From an uncultured virus (IMG/VR IMGVR_UViG_2571042902_000002) (Duplodnaviria > Heunggongvirae > Uroviricota > Caudoviricetes): a stretch of 64,000 bases of DNA. Numbering within the stretch: position 1 is the stretch's first letter; each line of letters begins with the position of its first letter. Location: the IMG/VR virus record IMGVR_UViG_2571042902_000002, positions 1 to 64,000 of that record. One strand, written 5' to 3'. Shown here piece by piece: positions 2,741 through 39,304 of the stretch. A program made the position numbers and the translations under genes. The notes beneath the pieces were generated by a model that was given only the letters and a program-made list of their open reading frames with translations, was not told the DNA's origin and searched no databases.

Positions 2741-3235
2741 TCATTTGGAGTTTGCCCTTGCTAACACTTCTTCGGTTTTCTCCAGGCGCTGAAGGAGGTC
2801 GGTGTTCGCGATGCGCAGCGCGGCAATCTCTTGGTTCTGCTCGCGGATCTGCGCGCACAGAGTTCGGATCAGTGCGTTATCGGTGGGCTTCGGTGGGCGC
2901 TTTCCCCCCTCGACAAGCTGCGCGGGCGAGCGAGTCATTAAGCGAAGCGTGGCTATGTGCTTCGCGCCCCGGCGCAGCCTTTCGTGGGGTATGCGTGCCT
3001 TTGGCGTGTGCTGAGGATTGGGTTGGAATATGCCTGCTGCTGCGCAGCAGTGGCTTTCTATAGCGCCACCCTCAGGCATCGGTTGGCGGCCCTGGGCGAC
3101 GGTGATCAGTTGGATGCGACGCGCTGGGCCGCCGCCGCGCTTCTGCGCGGCCGGGGCTTGGGTGCTGTGGGTGGCGTGTGCCAGGGCGGCGCCCTGGTCT
3201 TGTGCCGCTACGCGGCTAGCCGGGATAGTGGTCAT
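2741..3235 (-). CDS. Phage hypothetical protein
   Basis: 164-aa ORF in the leftward early operon, C-terminal coiled coil. Confidence 0.6.
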   Translation of the reverse strand: MTTIPASRVAAQDQGAALAHATHSTQAPAAQKRGGGPARRIQLITVAQGRQPMPEGGAIESHCCAAAGIFQPNPQHTPKARIPHERLRRGAKHIATLRLMTRSPAQLVEGGKRPPKPTDNALIRTLCAQIREQNQEIAALRIANTDLLQRLEKTEEVLARANSK

Positions 3236-3244
3236 CGCGCTGCC

Positions 3245-3484
3245 TCACATGCACATCGGTGCGGTGTCGCCGGAGTAGTCGAGGTCGACTGACTCCCAGC
3301 CGCTCGGACGAAGGCGGTCATCGATCTCGCGGATCTGGTCGCTGATATCGGCCATCGTGATTTCCCCACGTCGAGCATCGTCCTCGTCCCACTGCGGCTG
3401 CGCGCGGCGCAGGCGGGTCAGGCTGTCGACGTGGTGGCTGCGGTGCTTCAGCAGGTCGTAGGTGGAGAGGCTGGAATAGTTCAT
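3245..3484 (-). CDS. Phage hypothetical protein
   Basis: 79 aa; ATGA overlap with the upstream gene; GGAGG RBS. Confidence 0.7.
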   Translation of the reverse strand: MNYSSLSTYDLLKHRSHHVDSLTRLRRAQPQWDEDDARRGEITMADISDQIREIDDRLRPSGWESVDLDYSGDTAPMCM

Positions 3485-4105
3485 GCGGCCTCCTGCGCTT
3501 CGGCGTCTGCACTCTGGCTGGCCAAATTCGTGATGGCGAGCCGCTGGAGGATCGCGGCGAGCTGCTGTTGGGCTTCGGCGTCTGTGTTGCGCTTGGTGGT
3601 GCCGGTCTTTTGGAACTGTCGAGCGTGGCCGCTGAGGAGGCGACTGGCGGTGCGGATGGCGTCCAGTTCTTTGGTGGCCAAGTTCTGCTCGCGGAGGAAC
3701 TTTGTGGCCTCAGCCTGCCGATGATTGGTCGCGATGCGTGTCTCCAGCTCCATCTCCAGGCGCTTCAGTTCCGCTTGTTGCTCTTCGTGGCGCTGCTGCC
3801 AATCCGCAAGTTTCTCGGTGGCCTCGGCTTCGACGTTATGACGAAGTTCCTTCTGATCGCTGATCTCTTCCTGCTGCTTATCGATCACCTGTTGCAGGCG
3901 CTGGGCATTGGTGCGCAGCTTGGCCAGGTCGGCATGCAGCGCTGTCAGTTCCTGGCTGCGAGGCGCGGCAGAGGTAAAGCGCCTCGCCGACCGCCTGCTG
4001 TAGTGCGTTCTTCCTGTCCTTGCGCCCAGCAAGATAGGCGGTGGCGATCAGGATCAGCAGCGCGGCGAGAGTGGTAGCCGCGAGAATGATGTGTTGGGTA
4101 TGCAT
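3481..4105 (-). pseudogene. Frameshifted TM-anchored coiled-coil protein
   Basis: N-terminus MHTQHIILAA...LYLCRAS and C-terminus SQELTALHADL... lie in different frames, with the break near 3957-3960. Confidence 0.65.
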
Positions 4106-4155
4106 GGTGGTTTTCTCCATTGGTGGTGGGTGGCCGGTGGTGGCGGCCGGTGTGG

Positions 4156-4473
4156 TTACTCGTTACTGCCGAGTCGGGCGTATGCCTCGTCGGCCTGCCA
4201 GGCTCGGGAGTCGATCCAGGCCGCCAGGTGGCGCACATCGACAAATGGCTGGGCGCGCTGACTCGGGTCGACGGTGGTGATGGGGAGGCGGATTCGGCGT
4301 TCCTTGATCGAGCGGCTGAACGTGTCTTCGTTGAGGTTGTGGAAGTACCGAATGCGCAGGTGCTCCAGCGGGATCAGCACGTCGCCGAAGGTGCGGTAGA
4401 GCAGCTCCACCGTCTCCGGGCGCGGGGCCGGTGTCAGGCGAAGTTCCGGTTGGTTGTCGTGCGGAGTGCTCAT
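4156..4473 (-). CDS. prtN: Pyocin activator PrtN-like transcription regulator
   Basis: PRPETVELLYRTFGDVLIPLE..R.RYF.NLN...F...I...RI.LP.TT matches PrtN (PA0610) as recalled. Confidence 0.75.
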   Translation of the reverse strand: MSTPHDNQPELRLTPAPRPETVELLYRTFGDVLIPLEHLRIRYFHNLNEDTFSRSIKERRIRLPITTVDPSQRAQPFVDVRHLAAWIDSRAWQADEAYARLGSNE

Positions 4474-4700
4474 GCGGCGGCCTCGTTGAGCACGGCTACC
4501 GTGTCCTCGATGCCGCTGGCTGCTTCGTTGAGTTGGTCGACGATCTCTTCCATGCGCGCTCCCCGGTTGCTGTCTTGCAGGCTTTCGGGCATAGCGTCCA
4601 GGGCTTCCTCCTCCTCGCTAACCAAGGTTTCGATCTGCTCGCGGATCTCTTCGAGTTGAGCGGTGATCTGTTGCAGTTGGCGTCGGCGTGCGTTGTTCAT
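4470..4700 (-). CDS. Acidic coiled-coil phage protein
   Basis: 76 aa; ATGA overlaps. Confidence 0.7.
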   Translation of the reverse strand: MNNARRRQLQQITAQLEEIREQIETLVSEEEEALDAMPESLQDSNRGARMEEIVDQLNEAASGIEDTVAVLNEAAA

Positions 4701-4858
4701 TTGTTTCCCTTGGGATGGTTCCAGGCGATCTCTACGTGGGTTCGTACAAGTTCCCGTAAGTGTTCCGGCACCCGCTCCAGCGCCGCCCTGCGTTCCTCGA
4801 TGGTTCGAAGGGCGACGATCTGGCGGGCGTATTCGCGGGGCCGGGGCTCGTTAGCCAA
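4697..4858 (-). CDS. Small phage protein (53 aa, TTG start)
   Basis: MANEPRPREYARQIVALRTIEERRAALERVPEHLRELVRTHVEIAW...; fills the gap with overlaps on both sides; absent from the ORF track. Confidence 0.6.
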   Translation of the reverse strand: MANEPRPREYARQIVALRTIEERRAALERVPEHLRELVRTHVEIAWNHPKGNK

Positions 4859-5138
4859 CCTCGCGGCGGTCCGCTGGGGCGCAGACGCGGGGGATGCCGA
4901 GCTTGTCGGCCAGCCATGCCACTCCGGCCGGGCGCACTTTCGTCGAGTGGCTGTACTGCATGCCGAGTTCGGGGTGGTGCCAGGACGTTTCCTTTGCGCG
5001 CAGGTAGAGGCGGTCGCGGACCGGTACGGCTGGAAGGTTGCTGCTGTCGAGCAGGCCGGCCGCCTTCATGCGCTTGATCAGCTCGGGACGGCTCAGGCCG
5101 AGGCGCTGCGCGGCCTGGTGCAGGGACAAGTCTTTCAT
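4851..5138 (-). CDS. Antirepressor KilAC-like DNA-binding protein
   Basis: AAQRLGLSR..L...M...GLL...NLP and TKVRPAGVAWLADKL pattern. Confidence 0.65.
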   Translation of the reverse strand: MKDLSLHQAAQRLGLSRPELIKRMKAAGLLDSSNLPAVPVRDRLYLRAKETSWHHPELGMQYSHSTKVRPAGVAWLADKLGIPRVCAPADRREVG

Positions 5139-5147
5139 CGCGGCCCC

Positions 5148-5459
5148 CTACGCAGCCTGGTCGAAACGGTGGCGAGCCGGGGTCTCGTCCGCCGTGTCCA
5201 GGCGGCCATTCGCGATGGACTCGATGTAGTCGGCCACGGTGTTGGCGTTGGACTGGGAGTCGAGCGGGAGGCCCAGGCTGTTCAGCGTGGAGCCCATTCG
5301 AACGATGACGTGGACCTGTCCAGCGCCGCGCTCAATGTCGAGAGTGACGTGGACTGCCTGACGGGTTTCGGCGTCGTAGAGGGCGTGGTTGAAGCGGCCG
5401 TTGAGGCTGAGCTGAGCCTTGAGCCGCACAAAGGACGGTTGACGGAGTGCGTAGGTCAT
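5148..5459 (-). CDS. Phage hypothetical protein
   Basis: 103 aa; coupled in the operon. Confidence 0.7.
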   Translation of the reverse strand: MTYALRQPSFVRLKAQLSLNGRFNHALYDAETRQAVHVTLDIERGAGQVHVIVRMGSTLNSLGLPLDSQSNANTVADYIESIANGRLDTADETPARHRFDQAA

Positions 5460-5647
5460 GCCGCGTCACCTCCAAGCGGGGAGGTGGCGGTTACCACATG
5501 ACGGCGGCCCGAGGTACGGCTGGCTACAAGCTGGGCTTTGCCGTTGAAGATGACGACAAGGCAGCCGGTGTCGGCCTGGAGGCGTTGGATCTGTTGGGGG
5601 GAGGAGGTACAGGCCGGGTGGACGTGTACCGTGGCAGAGCGTTGCAT
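5456..5647 (-). CDS. First gene of the leftward early operon, hypothetical
   Basis: 63 aa; GAGG RBS embedded in a hairpin. Confidence 0.65.
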   Translation of the reverse strand: MQRSATVHVHPACTSSPQQIQRLQADTGCLVVIFNGKAQLVASRTSGRRHVVTATSPLGGDAA

Positions 5648-5686
5648 GGTGTTACCTCGTCTCTGTGGTGGAGAGTCGAGGTAAAA

Positions 5687-5728
5687 CTACAGTCTTGTTT
5701 GTTGATTGGTCAACAGTTTTGTTTGTAG
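5687..5728. promoter_or_regulatory. OL operators (two 18-bp sites)
   Basis: CTACA-N8-TGTTG at 5687-5704 and CAACA-N8-TGTAG at 5711-5728. Confidence 0.75.
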
Positions 5729-5741
5729 GCTCTTTTTGTTG

Positions 5742-6455
5742 CTACAACTTCTGTACGCGCCATACTGCCTTGCCACATATCTGCCATTCTTCGTTGACGC
5801 GAATGTATCGGGGTTCCCAAGCGGGATTCAGTGCTTCCAAATACCACTCGCCATCTTCCATCTGAAGGCGTTTGAACGTGACGCGATTAGAGTTGGTCAG
5901 CTTCGCTGCGACAAGATCCCCCGGCTTTGCTTCGATTGATGGATCAATGACCACGCGGTCTCCGCTTTCGAAACTCAAGGGGCCGGCGGGATTCTTCATG
6001 CTTATCCCATCAATAATCAAAACAAAGGCGTCCGGGCCTACAGGCCCTGGAGCATCTACCCATTCCTCAGCATCACCCGGCTGGAATAGATCGATTGCCT
6101 CTACCCAGGCGCCTGCTGCAATGGAGCCCACCACTGGCAATTTTTTCCCTGCAGGGCCGGCTACTGTAGCCCGCTCTGCCGCGGTGATCGTAGGGGGCAT
6201 GATGCTTGCGGCGGCGGGAAACGTGGGGTCCACCGACTGAGGCGGAATGCCTAGAACTCGGGCAATGACTGCCAGGTATTTCGAGTGCTTGGTTTTCCCT
6301 TGCTCAATCGCCGCGTAGGACTGTTGGGTAAAGGCTTGGCCGCCTAGCAGCTCGCGTACCCCTTTCGCTACCTCGCTTTGGGAAAGCTTCAGCTCTTCGC
6401 GACGCTTGCGAATCATGGCGGCAATTGCAGCTTGGCGTTCAGTTGGTGTGTTCAT
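5742..6455 (-). CDS. cI: CI-like repressor (HTH + S24 peptidase)
   Basis: N-terminal HTH; IAAG cleavage site, GISM serine and TFKRL lysine motifs; divergent from cro. Confidence 0.92.
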   Translation of the reverse strand: MNTPTERQAAIAAMIRKRREELKLSQSEVAKGVRELLGGQAFTQQSYAAIEQGKTKHSKYLAVIARVLGIPPQSVDPTFPAAASIMPPTITAAERATVAGPAGKKLPVVGSIAAGAWVEAIDLFQPGDAEEWVDAPGPVGPDAFVLIIDGISMKNPAGPLSFESGDRVVIDPSIEAKPGDLVAAKLTNSNRVTFKRLQMEDGEWYLEALNPAWEPRYIRVNEEWQICGKAVWRVQKL

Positions 6456-6465
6456 TGGGTGAACG

Positions 6466-6530
6466 CTACAAAAGGATTTGTTGGCCTTCAAACAGAAATG
6501 ACTGTTGAAAATCAACAATTTTGTTTGTAG
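6466..6530. promoter_or_regulatory. OR operators (three 18-bp sites)
   Basis: Sites at 6466-6483, 6490-6507 and 6513-6530 share the OL consensus and lie between cI and cro. Confidence 0.75.
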
Positions 6531-6561
6531 GCTGGGCGCCAGTTCCATCCGAGGAAGCCTT

Positions 6562-6816
6562 ATGTCAGATCAAGAACCAATGAAAGTCGCGTTTCAGCTT
6601 GCGATTTCCCGGGCAGGGGGCCAATCCGAGCTTTCACGCAAGCTCGCCGCATTCGGGGTCAATCTGTCTCAGCAAATGATTTCTCACTATCTGCGAGGTA
6701 GTGGGCATTGCCCGGCGGAAATGGTGCTGAAGGTCGAGGCACTGACCGGCGTCAGTCGCCACCGGTTGCGGCCGGACGTGTTTGGCGAGAGCGACGATGG
6801 ATTGGCAGTTGCCTAG
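6562..6816 (+). CDS. cro: Cro/YdaS-like regulator
   Basis: AGGQSELSR...SQQMIS...LRPDVFG; divergent from cI. Confidence 0.85.
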   Translation: MSDQEPMKVAFQLAISRAGGQSELSRKLAAFGVNLSQQMISHYLRGSGHCPAEMVLKVEALTGVSRHRLRPDVFGESDDGLAVA

Positions 6817-6828
6817 TCACCGTAACTA

Positions 6829-7105
6829 CCCTCGCCACCACCGAGGGAGGGGAGCCAGGCCGGCTGGAGCAGCACGCTAAGTACCACCACAGCCGACCGA
6901 GCTTCCCAGACCCAAGGCGCGGATGCCTTGGGGTTGCCAGCCTCTCCACCACAGAGTTGCTGGCTGCAATGGCCAGGTGATCAGGGATGCCGATCACCTG
7001 GCCAAGGCGGCAGATGGCGTTTCCACCACAGAGCGGCCATCTGCCTTGTGACCACCATGCAATGTGACCACGGCGCCTACTCTAACAAGGTTGGTGGCGT
7101 CGTGG
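6829..7105 (+). ncRNA. Candidate structured RNA (hairpin array with CCACCAC loops)
   Basis: About seven adjacent inverted repeats; CCACCAC at 6835, 6884, 6946 and 7023 at or near hairpin apices. Confidence 0.5.
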
Positions 7106-7132
7106 CACTGGCAGTAAACAGGAATAATTGCC

Positions 7133-7687
7133 ATGTCCCGACCCTCGTTCGCGGATCAGTTCGATCGCATGGGCCGCGAGGTGCTTCCCTTGGGCGAAGC
7201 GCTCAACCTCGTCGCTCGCAATCAACGCATGTGCCACGGTGGCATCACCGGCTTCGCTCACTCCACCGGCCGCAGCGTCTCCACCACCTCCCACAAGTTC
7301 GACCCCAGCCACACCAGCCATATCCTCAACATCTACGACGTGCTCGACTTCCTGCGGTACGTGTCGGCCGAGGGGCGGGCGGTCGTGCTCGACGCGCTGC
7401 ATGCTGAGCTGGGCGACAGCCTGTGGTTCTTCGTTTCGCCGCTTCAGTTCGAGGATGTGCCGGCCAGCCTGATTGCCGGCGCCGGCGAGATCCTGCACAC
7501 GTCGGCCAACGCGGCGACCACCATCGCGCGCCATATCGAGGACGGCCGCATCGACGCGGCCGAGCTGGCGGAAACCCAAAAGCTGGCGATGAGCATCATC
7601 CGCGCGGCGGTTGGCCTCTACGAGCGGGCTCGCTACGTCCACCAGACCACCAAGGGCGCCGAGCGCGGGGAGGTGAGCAATGGCTGA
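7133..7687 (+). CDS. Phage regulatory CII-family protein
   Basis: Position after cro; DGRIDAAELAE motif typical of the CP76/CII family. Confidence 0.7.
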   Translation: MSRPSFADQFDRMGREVLPLGEALNLVARNQRMCHGGITGFAHSTGRSVSTTSHKFDPSHTSHILNIYDVLDFLRYVSAEGRAVVLDALHAELGDSLWFFVSPLQFEDVPASLIAGAGEILHTSANAATTIARHIEDGRIDAAELAETQKLAMSIIRAAVGLYERARYVHQTTKGAERGEVSNG

Positions 7688-7889
7688 TATCGCGGATCAT
7701 GCCAATGACCTGGTGCTGGAGCGCATGGAGGCGGCATTGGCTGCCCGTGTGCTGGTAGCGGTTGGCGAATCGGCTCATGAGTGCGAGTGCTGCGGCGAAC
7801 CGATCCCGCCGCGTCGTCGCGAAGCTGTACCGGGGTGCCAAACCTGCATCGAATGCCAGTCCTTCAACGAGCGGAGGGGGTGCCGGTGA
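7680..7889 (+). CDS. TraR/DksA C4 zinc-finger protein (PtrB-like)
   Basis: MADIADHAN...CECCGEPIP..RR.A.PGC.TCIECQ. Confidence 0.88.
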   Translation: MADIADHANDLVLERMEAALAARVLVAVGESAHECECCGEPIPPRRREAVPGCQTCIECQSFNERRGCR

Positions 7890-10099
7890 GTAACGAAGCC
7901 TTGGACGAAGTGCTGAATCAGCTTCGGGATCATGGTATCGAGCCCTTCACCAAGCGGAGCCCGGGCTGGGTGTTCGGGAAGTTGGTGCGCTGCAAGGTCG
8001 AGGGCGACCGGAACGGGGAGGCAACTGGCTGGTACGTCCTGCACGAATACACCACTGCCAGCGGCAAGACCCTCTATTTCGGGCGCTTCGGCAACTGGCG
8101 GCAGGACCTCAACGAGAAATTCAAGCTCAAGGGTGTTCGCCTGACTGCCGAGGAGCGCGAGCTGATGCACGCGCGGCAGGAAGAGGCCAAGCGCAAGGCG
8201 GCAGCGAAGGCCGCCTATGCAGCGCAGCGTGCCGCCCAGGGCGCAGCGCGGTTGTGGGAACGGCTATCGGAGAAGGGCAAGGCGCCGTATCTCGACCGCA
8301 AGCAGATCGTAGGGATCGGCGGTCGCTACGGCTACGGCGGGCGTTTCATGGTGCCCATGCGGACCCTCAAGGGGCTGGTGGGACTGCAAATCATCTACCC
8401 CGAGAAGCAGCCCGATACCGGCCGGGACAAGGCGTATTGGCCCTATGGCATGCAGAAGGAAGGAGCGTTCTGCCTGATCGGTCCGCGCCCCGAACCCGGC
8501 GAGCCGGTGCTGATTGCCGAGGGGTACGCGACCGGCGTCAGCCTGCATATGGCGACGGGCTGTGCGGTGGCTATTGCCTTCGATGCCGGCAACCTGCTGC
8601 CGGTCGGCAAGGCGATGCAGACCGAGTATCCGTCTCGGCCGTTGATCTTCTGCGGCGATGACGACTGGAAGACCACCCGCCAGGACGGGTCGCCTTGGAA
8701 TCCGGGCGCTCAGGCTGCGGAGAACGCCGCCACGATCCTTGGCGGCCAGTTCGTGCTCCCTCGCTTCGGCAGCGAGCGCGAGGAGGGCTGGACTGACTTC
8801 AACGACCTGCACTGTGCCGAGGGGCTGGAGGCGGTTCGCGCCCAAGTCATGGCGGTAGTCCGGCCACCCGCTGAGGGTGGCTGGCGTGACTGCCTTCTGC
8901 GGATCAAGGGCGGCGGCCTGGCGGCGCACATGGTGAACATCAGTCTGATCCTACAGAACGATGAGCGCTGGCACGGAGTGCTCGGCTACGACGAGTTCAG
9001 CGCCAAGACCATGAAGCTGCGGACGCCGCCCTATGGTGGTGGTACGGGGGAGTGGACAGATCTGGACGACATGCTGGCGTGCGAGTGGCTGGCCCAGCAG
9101 TACGGTTTGCTGACGAAGGTGCCGCCGGTGCTGGAAGCGGTGTCGGTGGTGGCCAGCAAGAACAGCTTTCACCCGGTGCGGGCGTACCTTGAGGGCCTGG
9201 AGTGGGACGGTACGCCGCGGATCGAGCATTGGCTGAACAGGGCCCTGGGCGTGGAGGAGACCCCGTACTCGATGAAGGCCGGCAAGCGCTGGCTGATGGG
9301 CGCTGTTGCGCGTGTTATGCGCCCGGGCTGCAAGATGGATACGGTGCTGATCCTCGAAGGGTTGCAGGGCGAAGGCAAGTCGACCGCCATGTCGGTGCTG
9401 GGCGGCGAGTGGTTCATGGATACCCCGTTCGTGCTCGGTGACAAAGAGACGTTCCAGATGTTGCGCGGCAAGTGGATCAGCGAGCTGGGCGAGTTGGATG
9501 CGTTCAATAAAGCCGACAGCACGAAGGCAAAGCAGTTCTTTTCGGCCTCGGTCGATACCTTCCGCGAGAGCTACGGCCGCAGAACCCGCGATGTGCCACG
9601 ACAGTGTGTTTTCGTGGGTACGACCAACCAGGACGAGTACCTGAAAGACACCACCGGCAACCGTCGATACTGGCCGGTCCTCTGCACGAAGGTGGATCTT
9701 GACCTGTTGCGCGAGATCCGGGACCAGCTATGGGCCGAAGCACTGTTCTGCTACCGGGCCGGCGATCCGTGGTGGGTTTCGCGGGAGGAGCGAGCGCTGT
9801 TCGAGGAGGAGCAGGACAAGCGCTACACGGTTGACGCCTGGGAGCACAAGCTGATCGGCTGGCTTGAGGGATACGTCGGCGAGACCGTGACCAGTGCGGC
9901 TATCTTGGGCGAAGCGCTCAATCTGGATTACGGGCACTGGGGCAAGCCGGAGCAGATGCGAGTTGGCCACATCATGCACCGGCTGGGCTGGCGGCGCAGA
10001 CGTCTACCCGCATCCGGTAAGTCGCCGGTGCGACCGTGGGGCTACGAGCGGCCGCCGTCGTGGAAGGGACAGCCGACGCAGAGGGAGGCCGCATTTTGA
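7886..10099 (+). CDS. Primase (TOPRIM)-VapE/VirE helicase replicase
   Basis: IAEGYATG and CGDDD TOPRIM motifs; Walker A GLQGEGKST; GTTN and TGNRRYWPV; GTG start overlapping the previous stop. Confidence 0.9.
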   Translation: MSNEALDEVLNQLRDHGIEPFTKRSPGWVFGKLVRCKVEGDRNGEATGWYVLHEYTTASGKTLYFGRFGNWRQDLNEKFKLKGVRLTAEERELMHARQEEAKRKAAAKAAYAAQRAAQGAARLWERLSEKGKAPYLDRKQIVGIGGRYGYGGRFMVPMRTLKGLVGLQIIYPEKQPDTGRDKAYWPYGMQKEGAFCLIGPRPEPGEPVLIAEGYATGVSLHMATGCAVAIAFDAGNLLPVGKAMQTEYPSRPLIFCGDDDWKTTRQDGSPWNPGAQAAENAATILGGQFVLPRFGSEREEGWTDFNDLHCAEGLEAVRAQVMAVVRPPAEGGWRDCLLRIKGGGLAAHMVNISLILQNDERWHGVLGYDEFSAKTMKLRTPPYGGGTGEWTDLDDMLACEWLAQQYGLLTKVPPVLEAVSVVASKNSFHPVRAYLEGLEWDGTPRIEHWLNRALGVEETPYSMKAGKRWLMGAVARVMRPGCKMDTVLILEGLQGEGKSTAMSVLGGEWFMDTPFVLGDKETFQMLRGKWISELGELDAFNKADSTKAKQFFSASVDTFRESYGRRTRDVPRQCVFVGTTNQDEYLKDTTGNRRYWPVLCTKVDLDLLREIRDQLWAEALFCYRAGDPWWVSREERALFEEEQDKRYTVDAWEHKLIGWLEGYVGETVTSAAILGEALNLDYGHWGKPEQMRVGHIMHRLGWRRRRLPASGKSPVRPWGYERPPSWKGQPTQREAAF

Positions 10100-10480: not shown

Positions 10481-10748
10481 TGTCCCACCGTCCTACTCTG
10501 TCCCGCTTCGTTTTTCGAGGCGGGACAGCGCAAAGCCCCGTCACTGCTGAGGCTGTCCCACTGTCCCACCTTTCACACACCCGCCCGCACATAGGCGCGC
10601 ATCGCGCGCACGCGCGCAGCGTGCGCTCTTATTATTCTTCTCTTATATGCGTAGAAAGTAGTAGGACAAGTGGGACAGTAGGACAGCGCCATATAAATCA
10701 AAGGGTTATCTGTCCCACCTGTTGACCCACCTACTGACCAGTAGGACA
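10481..10748. repeat. Iteron array, probable replication origin
   Basis: About 12 direct and inverted TGTCC(C/T)(A/G)C-type copies flanking an AT-rich core near 10627-10660. Confidence 0.65.
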
Positions 10749-19061: not shown

Positions 19062-19085
19062 AAGCCCCGCCTGCGCGGGGTTTTT
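19062..19085 (+). terminator. Intrinsic terminator
   Basis: GCCCCGC-ctgc-GCGGGGT followed by a T run. Confidence 0.6.
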
Positions 19086-37615: not shown

Positions 37616-39304
37616 TCAGATTCTCTTTGTCAGTGACCACTTAGCACTTGGCCCATTTCCAGTCCGAGTTGCGTAGGAAGCTTTTCTCAAGAATGCGCTC
37701 GTATGTGGAGTATTTTTGTGCTCCAGTAAGTGGGTGATATTCTCGTTTGAGGCCTCGCCAAACTCTTGTAGATAGTCGAATAATTTCACATGCTTAGCTG
37801 AGGTTTGACTTATTTTTAGAGGATTTTGTGCTTTGAAATAGCTGGCCCATGCTGGTTTGAATCTGACGAAAATTCCCTTGTTTGTGCCGCATAGTTCTAA
37901 TTCACTATGATTTTTCACCGATTCTTTTATTGTGTTCCATGCATTTCCATCGTATGTAGGAATACGTTTGGCAAGTTCTATCACGTCCATATAGCCGATC
38001 CTATATAAGCTGTTAAAAATAACTAAGTCGGCTACGCTGAATTTTTCGAGTGCGGCTTGCACTTTTACAAATATCTCAGGAATAATAGCTTTTGCAGATA
38101 AGGAAACCTCTACAGTATCGAATATCTCCCTGAACTTGGGGAACTCTCTCCCGTACGCCAGGGAGCCAAAATGCATTCTCTTTACACCCATGCCAGCTCG
38201 GTCTACTAGTTGAAAGTTCATTAGAAGTTTGGCTAGGGCTTTATTTCTATGGCGAGGTTGATGAGAAGTGATGTTTTCTGCTGTCACGCCTCCATAGAAT
38301 ACGCCTGGATTAGTAACCATCATTCTTTCAAAGTTATAGTCAACAACCACCATTCCCTCAATTGAGTAGTCGCGATGAACCAAGGCATTCATAAAGCATT
38401 CATGAAATGCTATATTGTCTAAAAGTTTGCACGGATGGGTTTTTCCTGCGTACTCCAGTGAGATTTCCGTGTTGCAGCTGTCAAATAAGCTTTTTGTGCG
38501 CTGTATGGTCTTCCAAAGATTATCGTCCCAAACCACGTTGTGGCGTATCTCTCCATTGGTTTCTCGCCAAGTGAAGCGGTATTCATAGGTGCCAAGCCAC
38601 TTAGAAATTTCATTAGATTTACCGAGGAATAGGAGTCCGGATTTGGTTACGACTCCATTTGTTGTGGCACCGATTGCTTCTAGGAAACTGGTAGTAGTGG
38701 GGCGTTGGTCTATAGGATATTTTTTCCTTAAGCAGTAGTCGTCATAGGCATCTTCAACTGCGGTTAAGTCGAGTGAGGTGGCCTGTAAGTGATCTATTGT
38801 TTCGGCAGTCCAGTCATAATTAAGCAAGCCTGATACCGCCAAGCGAATTTCTTCGGGTTCCATCGGCCTGCTAGAGCGGCCATCACGAATACATGTCTTG
38901 CCACTTGTGGTGGAAACTAATGTGTCTCTGCGTCGGGGGACATGTACTGTGAGATAGTTTTTTCCGTCAAATTCTATGTACTGAGCCCTGATGTCCAGGT
39001 TTGGGCGAATCTTGCCTTTTATTCGTTGTTCAATCTCTATGTTGTCTGAGAGTTCAAATCCGACGAGTTGTGTAGCCCACTGCTGATGCTGGACGTTTCC
39101 GCCGTCTCTAATGCCAATTATTATAACGCCGCCTTTCTTGTTTGCGAGGGCTGAAACTTCTTCTGCCAGTTCTTTGGAACCATGTAATGATGCTGTGCTT
39201 GAGAATTCTTTGAATTCCACTTCTTCGCTTTCTAAAAGCTCACTATTGATGTGCTGGCATGCTTGAATAATTCCTAATATCTCTTCAGTGCTCTTCATGT
39301 ACAT
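37616..39304 (-). CDS. Schlafen/AlbA_2 domain + HATPase_c_4 (RecG-C-like) + HTH protein
   Basis: ESEEVEFKE...VSALANKKGGVIIIGIRD; FHECFMNALVHRDYS...NPG...RN.ALA...VDRAGMG; start uncertain (39298/39304/39367). Confidence 0.85.
   Translation of the reverse strand: MYMKSTEEILGIIQACQHINSELLESEEVEFKEFSSTASLHGSKELAEEVSALANKKGGVIIIGIRDGGNVQHQQWATQLVGFELSDNIEIEQRIKGKIRPNLDIRAQYIEFDGKNYLTVHVPRRRDTLVSTTSGKTCIRDGRSSRPMEPEEIRLAVSGLLNYDWTAETIDHLQATSLDLTAVEDAYDDYCLRKKYPIDQRPTTTSFLEAIGATTNGVVTKSGLLFLGKSNEISKWLGTYEYRFTWRETNGEIRHNVVWDDNLWKTIQRTKSLFDSCNTEISLEYAGKTHPCKLLDNIAFHECFMNALVHRDYSIEGMVVVDYNFERMMVTNPGVFYGGVTAENITSHQPRHRNKALAKLLMNFQLVDRAGMGVKRMHFGSLAYGREFPKFREIFDTVEVSLSAKAIIPEIFVKVQAALEKFSVADLVIFNSLYRIGYMDVIELAKRIPTYDGNAWNTIKESVKNHSELELCGTNKGIFVRFKPAWASYFKAQNPLKISQTSAKHVKLFDYLQEFGEASNENITHLLEHKNTPHTSAFLRKASYATRTGNGPSAKWSLTKRI

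Follow-up and report, generated by a model that had tools for sequence, protein, structure and literature searches.

In phage lambda, N is the first gene of the pL operon, and the nutL and nutR sites are short constant-loop hairpins on the early RNAs (the boxB loop being a purine-rich pentaloop), one right after pL and the other between cro and cII, outside the exchangeable immunity module. In work on HK022 (PMC9378689), putL is placed shortly downstream of PL and putR some 270 nt beyond PR, and put is described as a two-stem fold of 70 nt that contains a triplex and binds polymerase with no protein involved. The operators of the MS2 and PP7 coat proteins and the T4 RegA sites set a hairpin right beside a Shine-Dalgarno sequence (SD) or AUG, with the same motif at several early genes, and in IS10-type fold-back inhibition the SD is paired with sequence upstream of the transcription start. 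RsmY, RsmZ, RsmV, RsmW and the targets of RsmA and RsmF carry GGA in hairpin loops, within the binding consensus CANGGAYG (10.1101/315341). Very little is known about the early regulatory switch of Pseudomonas temperate phages, and our literature search found no description of a nut-like system in them.

Here we define, in the window (the 64,000-nt stretch analysed, positions 1 to 64,000 of IMG/VR record IMGVR_UViG_2571042902_000002), a covarying cII leader RNA of about 300 nt together with matching single hairpins at other early genes, which match no Rfam family and share a new hairpin-loop code, CACCAC, with a putative reader. As judged by comparison with related records, a group of Pseudomonas temperate phages carries this conserved hairpin family at early-gene starts and in the cII leader, and the family has the look of an RNA system, so far undescribed, that controls the switch between lysis and lysogeny. 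The elements are listed below, with loops in parentheses.

4123-4129, minus strand: unpaired CCACCAC, 4 nt upstream of the GGAG SD (4115-4118) of a gene starting at 4105
4132-4148, minus strand: L2, hairpin GGCCG(CCACCAC)CGGCC, between a PrtN/excisionase-like gene (4156-4473) and the next gene
5456-5647, minus strand: p63, a small protein of 63 aa, first gene of the leftward operon, always linked to L1
5652-5684, minus strand: L1, leader hairpin, inner stem CUCU(CCACCAC)AGAG (5661-5675), outer stem UUACCUCG/CGAGGUAA
6829-6847, plus strand: HP1, CCCUCG(CCACCAC)CGAGGG, first leader element, with an immunity-module mosaic border directly upstream
6861-6895, plus strand: HP2, stem CGGCUG/CAGCCG, 23-nt loop with CCACCAC on its 3' side
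6911-6932, plus strand: HP-A, arms CCCAAGGC and GCCUUGGG, loop GCGGAU, 2 compensatory pairs
6936-6964, plus strand: HP3, GCCAGC-CUCU(CCACCAC)AGAG-UU-GCUGGC, 3 compensatory pairs
6971-7003, plus strand: HP-B, arms GGCCAGGUGAUC and GAUCACCUGGCC, loop AGGGAUGCC, 8 of 11 pairs compensatory
7009-7045, plus strand: HP4, 14-pair stem around UUUC(CACCACA)GAG
7048-7071, plus strand: direct repeat GUGACCAC-N8-GUGACCAC
7064-7108, plus strand: hairpin with a boxA-like loop
7109-7135, plus strand: hairpin with the cII SD AGGA (7120-7123) in its loop, 2 compensatory pairs
7133-7687, plus strand: cII-like regulator of the CP76 family, with the hairpin array as its 5' leader

All six CCACCAC sites reported in the earlier note are present, at 6835, 6884, 6946 and 7023 on the plus strand and at 5665-5671 and 4137-4143 on the minus strand, and they do lie on the sense strand of the rightward and leftward early operons; the unpaired copy at 4123-4129 is a seventh that had been missed. 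Their assignment to hairpin apices was correct for HP1, HP3, HP4, L1 and L2 and wrong for the 6884 copy, which is displaced to one side of the HP2 loop. The 15-mer CTCTCCACCACAGAG is the same at 5661-5675 (minus) and 6942-6956 (plus), as had been noticed, and has no other copy in the 87,398-nt record. By itself, the heptamer CCACCAC is nothing special in this GC-rich window; it occurs 34 times where 8.7 would be expected (none of 100 shuffles attains 34), the majority of its copies lie inside coding sequence and the reversed control word is equally common in related records. The 9-mer CCACCACAG has four copies in the window against 0.54 expected, a count reached by 0 of 100 shuffles, and all four fall at the claimed sites. 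Throughout the record, 5 of the 42 CCACCAC copies are closed by at least four contiguous pairs around a 7-nt loop; four of these are claimed sites and the fifth, at 38913, depends on two G-U pairs. The extended word, its hairpin context and its conservation in relatives are not products of chance.

The loop core CACCAC is kept in eight phage lineages on stems that differ by compensatory substitutions. Hairpins with a 7-nt loop and at least four contiguous pairs account for 158 of the 586 CACCAC occurrences (49 loci), and distinct hairpins whose 7-nt loop holds CACCAC within at least four contiguous closing pairs number 30, with the loops CCACCAC (19), CACCACA (5), CACCACC (3), UCACCAC (2) and CACCACG (1). 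Covariation and Rfam membership had been proposed as checks and both were run. An alignment of 28 sequences displayed changes on both sides in 17 of 51 pairs, compared with 5.0 in shuffles (0 of 500 reach 17), and slid controls gave 0-3 compensatory pairs. Since G-U pairs far outnumber A-C mismatches in the array stems (99 against 8 alignment cells), the sense RNA is the folded strand. By cmscan, positions 3000-9000 gave no family match, with two sub-threshold and unrelated hits only (a lncRNA model and a miRNA model). The earlier proposal of a protein-binding RNA element is thereby upheld as to a constant loop on covarying stems, the absence of an Rfam match and the folding of the sense strand, while its trans-acting reader stays putative.

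The 316 nt between cro and cII form a conserved 5' leader, that of a cII gene of the CP76 type, and 331 nt of spacer fold at -164.9 kcal/mol with a z-score of -6.66 (matched by 0 of 100 shuffles). An array precedes a CP76-type cII gene in the window and in four of four divergent cases, although the cII proteins behind the arrays fall to 61% identity or lower. The window's leader contains three to four CACCAC hairpins and those of relatives from two (L199) to eight (L139), a variable number more in keeping with avidity than with a single fixed fold. The loop columns of HP3 are invariant in 28 of 28 sequences, and in some relatives HP2 is replaced by an unrelated hairpin. Between the CACCAC hairpins and the cII start lie further parts that the earlier note had passed over along with the two GGA hairpins, namely the boxA-like loop and the hairpin presenting the cII SD, which also pairs the A of the cII AUG (7133-7135). 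The first copy of the direct repeat is unpaired and contains ACCACCAUG; the second is the 5' arm of the following hairpin, whose loop CUCUAACAAGG (7080-7090) resembles boxA, contrary to the statement that no boxA was recognised. In other lineages this hairpin, which lies in a poorly aligned region, has a similar loop on a different stem.

The single sites abut a ribosome-binding site. The GAGG SD of the p63 gene (5655-5658) is located within the outer stem of L1, as claimed. An L1-homologous hairpin stands directly before the p63 homologue in seven of seven lineages, with 6-13 nt from the inner stem to the AUG and 1-3 nt from L1 to the SD. L1 extends to a predicted -10 element, TAGTTT (5684-5689), which would put the start of the pL transcript at about 5677/5676, within the outer 5' arm; in that case the stem that sequesters the SD might be restricted to read-through RNA. 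L2 is kept on other stems (GCUG, GCGCCG, CCGCUG) in four of four lineages examined, and in all four it precedes the SD of a mid-operon gene. Between the L2-type hairpin and the SD, the unpaired copy is found as CACCAC in G006 and G007 and as a shorter ACCAC in L164. In a third immunity type the hairpin GUUCU(CCACCAC)AGAGC is situated 8 nt before the cro AUG. Placement against an SD or AUG, as in a translational operator, is therefore seen for L1, L2 and this cro leader and not for HP1, HP3 and HP4, which lie 85-300 nt from the cII start and cannot directly block its ribosome-binding site.

The explanation that we favour, tentatively and at less than even confidence, is that the CACCAC hairpins are operators through which an RNA-binding factor affects translation or stability, the cII leader being a platform with several sites. 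They would be cis-acting elements on sense early transcripts, and the sequence-specific trans-acting factor that reads them would most probably be an RNA-binding protein whose gene lies outside the immunity module. The structures, loop conservation, strand, placement and linkage are observed here; that a protein binds, its putative identity, the sign of its effect and binding by RsmA are inferred. The prime candidate is p63; it has no Pfam match, no functional PHROG match and no match in a protein atlas search, and its AF2 model is poor (pLDDT 55.5). Its eight homologues are all from close relatives; a source name is given for two of them, in both cases P. aeruginosa. The factor, when bound at L1, at L2 or in the cro leader found in one immunity type, would regulate either the access of ribosomes or the stability of the mRNA, the L2 site combining the hairpin with the unpaired CACCAC right before the SD. 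In the cII leader, the CACCAC hairpins, the two GGA hairpins of RsmA/RsmF type and the SD-in-loop hairpin would set cII translation from both inputs, and, being multivalent, the leader would also draw the factor off the single sites by titration. The single sites resemble the MS2, PP7 and RegA operators in position and in the recurrence of one motif at several early genes, whereas the majority of the array copies have no start codon near them and the cognate protein is a candidate only. The L1 outer stem resembles IS10-type inhibition in pairing the SD with sequence upstream of the predicted transcription start, by which silencing would be confined to read-through RNA, such as that from cI; this accounts for neither the conserved loop nor the other sites.

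The placement of the hairpins suits antitermination sites equally well, which is a point against operators. In a process of the nut or put type, the main rival and a possible though somewhat unlikely alternative, the hairpins on nascent pL and pR RNAs would load RNA polymerase, either directly or with an N-like protein (possibly p63) and Nus factors, for read-through of downstream terminators; should they prove nut-like, they would constitute the first system of this kind to be defined in these phages. The placement is that of nutL/nutR and putL/putR: the pL RNA has one site at its predicted 5' end, and the array begins just after cro, some 285 nt from the predicted pR (at about 270-290 nt of the transcript), both promoters having been read by eye where a consensus scan found none. 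In the third immunity type it is the pR RNA whose predicted 5' end carries a site. As in HK022, the left copy has sequence in common with the right ones, and the hairpins remain with their flanks upon exchange of the immunity module, whose borders are at L1 and HP1 (joint 5684/6829). Like lambda N, p63 is small, poorly conserved and encoded first in the pL operon; it has neither an arginine-rich motif nor an arginine-rich N-terminus, and no arginine-rich N-like protein was found. The loop is a C/A-rich heptamer, unlike boxB. A conserved boxA-like loop does lie at the 3' end of the array, but it is the sole one, 35 nt 3' of HP4 and varying between lineages, with no boxA beside L1, L2, HP1, HP3 or HP4, and the CGCUCU behind L1 shows no conservation of its nucleotides. 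Terminator-like sites occur on the plus strand only at 10606-10626 and 19062-19083, and none is close downstream of any hairpin; the total count of terminator-like sites does not exceed that of shuffles (18 against 13.5 +/- 3.9), and Rho-dependent sites are not predictable. Unlike the put fold, L1 is one short hairpin (17-33 nt) with the loop as its conserved part, and two to eight hairpins per array plus a mid-operon site directly before an SD are unexpected for antitermination.

Kissing antisense systems typically use seven-nucleotide loops, the size found here, and the CACCAC loops could pair with GUGGUGG-loop RNA, such as a leftward cII-activated antisense transcript, or could mark nuclease processing that releases a stable RNA. 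By sequence logic, a leftward transcript of the array would bear GUGGUGG loops complementary to L1 and L2 on RNA of the same direction, and the 151-nt RNA contig described below ends exactly at the bases of HP2 and HP4. We consider such control distinctly unlikely, as selection has acted on the sense strand of the array, no leftward promoter was found in it or to its right, and a GUGGUGG-loop hairpin was seen on no sense early transcript. Still less probable is a DNA-level element, with CCACCAC serving as iterons or single-strand hairpin signals on lagging-strand templates for the P4-alpha-like primase-helicase (7781-10099), or as recombination linkers at module borders. The orientation of CCACCAC flips between the left and right arms, as it would on lagging-strand templates if a bidirectional origin lay in the immunity region, a gene with Toprim and VapE domains begins 650 nt downstream of the array, and L1 and HP1 coincide with module borders. 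Against this, iterons read as double strands would not explain why the flanking stems covary, the array continues unbroken as far as the hairpin with the cII SD and the AUG, L1 and L2 keep to ribosome-binding sites, and the interleaved GGA hairpins fit an RNA-binding consensus.

The earlier note had also proposed an RsmZ-like sponge. The CCACCAC loops themselves contain no GGA, and the truly RsmZ-like parts of the leader are HP-A and HP-B, which look like RsmA/RsmF binding sites alternating with the CACCAC hairpins. Of the two, HP-B alone matches CANGGAYG in full in the window (CAGGGAUG), while HP-A reads CGCGGAUG, with G where the consensus has A; in most relatives its loop is ACGGAU or ACGGAG, giving CACGGAUG, consistent with CANGGAYG. 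The GGA of both is near-invariant across the 28 sequences on covarying stems, and that of HP-B stays in the loop in nearly all of them while the stem changes completely. As in Rsm targets and sponges, the cII SD with its GGA is also in a hairpin loop, and the multi-hairpin leader may accumulate as a short RNA. It differs from the Rsm small RNAs in having just two to three GGA sites, in their alternation with a second, unrelated loop motif, CACCAC, and in lying within a phage mRNA leader rather than in a free-standing gene; cmscan of 3000-9000 at E up to 1 gave no Rsm family, RsmY and RsmZ included, and RF00166 is absent from the record. We know of no Rsm RNA with a CACCAC loop motif. The Gac/Rsm network governs the acute and chronic lifestyles of P. 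aeruginosa, and by way of the RsmA/RsmF consensus sites in its cII leader the phage would link the choice of lysis or lysogeny to this network. A RIP-seq run (X24, raw reads) contained no reads on this stretch. In RNA run X1, 6896-7046 forms a separate contig of 151 nt with a word depth of about 9,900, its neighbours having 32 to 365, which is a hint, no more, in favour of the operator reading, contigs being unable to prove RNA level or ends. It is conceivable, if unlikely, that this leader core, with its two GGA and two CACCAC hairpins, is excised and builds up as a small, stable RNA of the phage, titrating RsmA/RsmF and a second factor; the phage would thus read and rewire the Gac/Rsm state at the choice between lysis and lysogeny, the CACCAC code tying the left and right early operons to it. 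The 151-nt piece is also found beside other flanks in run X1, from which it follows that a second genomic copy exists.

The window comes from an IMG/VR provirus record. The region concerned forms the early switch of a temperate phage of P. aeruginosa, with the following features.

starts at 4105, minus strand: coiled-coil membrane protein gene, 3' of hairpin L2
4156-4473, minus strand: PrtN/excisionase-like gene, followed by hairpin L2
after p63, minus strand: leftward operon genes of 103, 95 (KilAC-like), 53 and 76 aa
5456-5647, minus strand: p63, a 63-aa gene, start of the leftward operon
5742-6548, minus strand: S24/HTH repressor cI
6562-6816, plus strand: YdaS/HTH cro
6817-7132, plus strand: non-coding spacer
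7133-7687, plus strand: CP76-type cII
7680-7889, plus strand: DksA/TraR zinc finger
7781-10099, plus strand: Toprim and VapE primase-helicase

The gene at 4156-4473 matched the Pfam family PyocinActivator PrtN (E 1.5e-25) as well as an excisionase PHROG, and relatives annotate it as excisionase. Near 3956 on the minus strand, within the gene starting at 4105, 2 nt are missing from the window as compared to phage Haddon and to contigs of three RNA runs. This absence, a frameshift or else an error of assembly, interrupts the coiled-coil membrane protein gene after about 50 codons.

This switch carries a family of sense-strand RNA hairpins with a loop under selection, which stand at ribosome-binding sites of early genes and recur several times in the cII leader. 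Its members present CACCAC in the loop region, either singly at leftward genes (L1 and L2) or as hairpins HP1 to HP4 of the cro-cII spacer. Of 50,697 deposited phage records, no more than three (Haddon, LPPA36 and vB_Pae_U5) contain this spacer. The coordinates of the CCACCAC sites reported in the earlier note were all confirmed (6835, 6884, 6946 and 7023 on the plus strand, 5665-5671 and 4137-4143 on the minus strand), and an additional copy was found at 4123-4129 on the minus strand. The 6884 copy, however, is not apical: it occupies the 3' part of a 23-nt loop. The heptamer alone proves little: the window contains 34 copies against 8.7 expected, a number reached in none of 100 shuffles, the majority lying inside coding sequence, and the reversed control word matched the motif in frequency in three related records. 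The extended word CCACCACAG, in contrast, occurs four times against 0.54 expected (0/100 shuffles), every time at a claimed site. Among the 42 CCACCAC copies of the whole record, five show at least 4 contiguous pairs closing a 7-nt loop and four of these five are claimed sites. The spacer folds with a z of -6.66, and the 15-mer CTCTCCACCACAGAG, said to be identical at 5661-5675 (minus strand) and 6942-6956 (plus strand), is indeed so and has no other copy in the 87,398-nt record. Chance explains neither the extended word nor the hairpin context. The window also has three copies of CACCATGCA, all of them 5-20 nt 3' of a CACCAC hairpin.

Protein- and pattern-guided scans yielded 36 close loci, among whose upstream sequences 27 are distinct, and seven further, more distant lineages (G001, G004 to G008 and the metagenome contig L294), with a cII identity of 73% for G001 and 61% for G004. 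The gapped pattern CCACCACAG-N(40-70)-CCACCACAG was found in at least 119 stretches of viral contigs, nearly all coding or tandem repeats. When 80 such loci were tested for hairpins, all that passed were relatives already known (L008, L040, L070) or repeat arrays, L016 among them. The 16-mer TGTGACCACCATGCAA gave 47 stretches, 12 of them new, of which 11 were due to chance and one was a true relative (L230). A cII protein search of genome contigs, host chromosomes aside, returned a single irrelevant locus.

The proposal of a constant loop on variable stems was borne out by these relatives, which retain the loop and exchange the stems: GGCGCGUA[CCACCAC]UGCGCGCC, GCGCCGCUACCG[CCACCAC]CGGUAGCGGCGC, CAC[CACCACA]GUG, CCCU[CACCACA]AGGG and GCCCUCG[UCACCAC]CGGGGGU (loops in brackets). 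Over 49 loci, 158 of the 586 CACCAC occurrences lie in such hairpins, 30 of them distinct, with CACCAC as the invariant loop core; the few that sit in coding sequence may have arisen by chance. RNAalifold predicted 51 pairs in an alignment of 28 leader sequences, in which 97.7% of cells were paired and HP3 and HP4 had invariant loop columns. The covariation suggested as a check was found: 17 of the 51 pairs display changes on both sides, as compared to 5.0 +/- 1.8 in shuffles (0/500 reach 17) and 0-3 in controls with slid 3' partners. Because the 28 sequences are related, the significance against shuffles is overstated, whereas the slid controls are free of that flaw. Folding energies of single hairpins gave no decision between sense and antisense, and a count of G-U against A-C cells was used instead: it gave 99 G-U and 8 A-C, so the folded molecule is the sense strand.

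The cII leader is composite, and its element order is common to the lineages: HP1 [CCACCAC], a variable HP2, HP-A [ACGGAU or ACGGAG], HP3 [CCACCAC], HP-B with GGA within its loop, and HP4 [CACCACA]. These are followed by two copies of GUGACCAC, by a hairpin with a boxA-like loop and finally by a hairpin whose loop holds the cII Shine-Dalgarno (SD) sequence (AGGA, 7120-7123) and which has the AUG at its base. The boxA-like sequence CUCUAACAAGG (7080-7090) occupies the loop of hairpin 7064-7108; other lineages have a similar loop (CUCUAUCAAAGG, CUCUAGCAAAG or CUGUAGCAAUC) on a different stem. The direct repeat GUGACCAC-N8-GUGACCAC (7048-7055 and 7064-7071) is retained by most lineages. Its first copy could offer an alternative pairing by competing with the second copy for a shared 3' arm; another possibility is that the CP76-type cII recognizes the repeat as DNA. 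The gene 3' of the array is CP76-type in all four divergent cases examined, one of which scores below the Pfam cut-off (22 vs 26 bits). Hairpin number varies between lineages: G004 has only two CACCAC hairpins, and in L139 (1619-1777) a unit of alternating GGA, CCACCAC, GGA and CCACCAC hairpins occurs twice in tandem, the copies having covarying stems. Two small ORFs in the array, 6923-7051 (a 46-aa hypothetical protein in phage Haddon, L001 4029-4169) and one starting from the AUG at 7057, were rejected as genes because of stem-compensatory substitutions, a frame-shifting indel and their absence from other lineages.

The GGA hairpins, HP-A (6911-6932) and HP-B (6971-7003), alternate with the CCACCAC hairpins and had been overlooked. 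Their sequences, CACGGAUG for HP-A in most relatives and CAGGGAUG for HP-B, both match CANGGAYG, which in a hairpin loop has been described as an RsmA/RsmF site (10.1101/315341). Their stems show the strongest covariation (8/11 pairs for HP-B), and GGA remains in the loop even where this is reduced to a triloop. GGA loops are not universal, being absent from G004. HP-A and HP-B are the truly RsmZ-like part of the leader, and the GGA loops together with the SD-in-loop arrangement suggest that cII is under host Gac/Rsm control. An RsmZ search of control genomes gave one sub-threshold match only.

The single sites lie at ribosome-binding sites. L1 directly precedes a p63 homologue in all seven lineages, with the SD 1-3 nt past the inner stem; an outer stem whose sequence varies by lineage (CCUCG/CGAGG, CUCG/CGAG, ACUCCU/AGGAGU, UUGUCUC/GAGGCAA) holds this SD in its 3' arm. 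A p63 homologue was found in four of five records, and the fifth carries an ORF starting MSISATV after the hairpin. L2 is kept in 4/4 lineages on stems GGCCG, GCUG, GCGCCG and CCGCUG, and is followed by an unpaired CACCAC (just ACCAC in locus L164) immediately 5' of the SD. In a third immunity type (L170 1340-1385, L176 1740-1785), the hairpin GUUCU[CCACCAC]AGAGC lies between the predicted pR and the cro AUG, 8 nt 5' of a cro start devoid of a clear SD. A predicted pL, TTGACC-N18-TAGTTT, parallels pR, TTGAAA-N17-TAGGCT, when read by eye; neither was detected by a consensus promoter scan. If that reading is right, transcription would start around 5677/5676, inside the outer 5' arm of L1, and the full SD-sequestering stem could thus form only on RNA started upstream, such as read-through from cI, a logic for which we propose a likeness to IS10 fold-back. 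The inverted repeat around L1 (5652-5684, minus strand) reaches into the predicted pL -10 (5684-5689), and covers the entire -10 in G001. Near-identical 20-nt copies of CCTACAAACAAAA(C/T)TGTTG at 5700-5722 (minus strand) and 6514-6535 (plus strand) overlap both predicted early promoters and probably represent OL and OR, the operators of the repressor.

Heteroimmune relatives differ in exactly the stretch between L1 and HP1, and in a contig from an RNA run 5684 and 6829 are connected by 1,107 other letters. The hairpins are therefore part of the flanks, as would be expected of cis sites if their reader were encoded outside the immunity module. This location, like the placement of the sites, agrees with nut/put-like antitermination, a somewhat less likely possibility for which neither a boxA beside the single sites nor an N-like protein nor terminators close by were found. 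AlpA, of P. aeruginosa prophage antitermination, is described as a DNA-binding antiterminator. Readings at the DNA level are very unlikely, being at odds with both the strand test and the covariation, and kissing or antisense control, or processing, appears improbable. We tentatively favour post-transcriptional control, in which a sequence-specific reader would recognize the CACCAC loops and the cII leader would serve as a multi-site platform, because the single sites go with SDs, L2 is mid-operon, hairpin copy number varies and RsmA-type translational sites alternate with the CACCAC hairpins of the array.

By linkage only, p63 is the best candidate for such a reader. Its homologue search returned 8 close relatives only, both of the two with source names being P. 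aeruginosa; a protein atlas gave no named cluster (clusters below 0.9) and the quality of its AF2 model was too low for a fold search. The proposed check against Rfam (3000-9000, E up to 1) detected nothing relevant and no family matches. Literature searches returned no paper on a CCACCAC stem-loop in phage and, among the matches listed, nothing relevant on small RNAs or immunity of P. aeruginosa temperate phages and none on Pseudomonas phages for boxB/nutL. The matches listed for CCACCACAGAG were mostly primers, one being the sRNA Pfs1. This 207-nt chromosomal sRNA of P. fluorescens is reported to hold the 11-mer CCACCACAGAG, with CUCUAACAA near its 3' end, and to be flanked by a transporter gene on one side and a type VI secretion gene on the other rather than belonging to a phage (PMC12017322); the match is probably a coincidence.

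In the RNA run X1, 6896-7046 forms a separate 151-nt contig, spanning the HP2 base to the HP4 base, with a word depth of about 9,900 as compared to 64, 365, 174 and 32 for the adjoining contigs, although neither level nor ends nor strand can be read from contigs. Foreign flanks, absent from the record and from all collected loci, are joined to it at both ends. Together, these observations suggest that the genome holds a second copy and that a short RNA is abundant.
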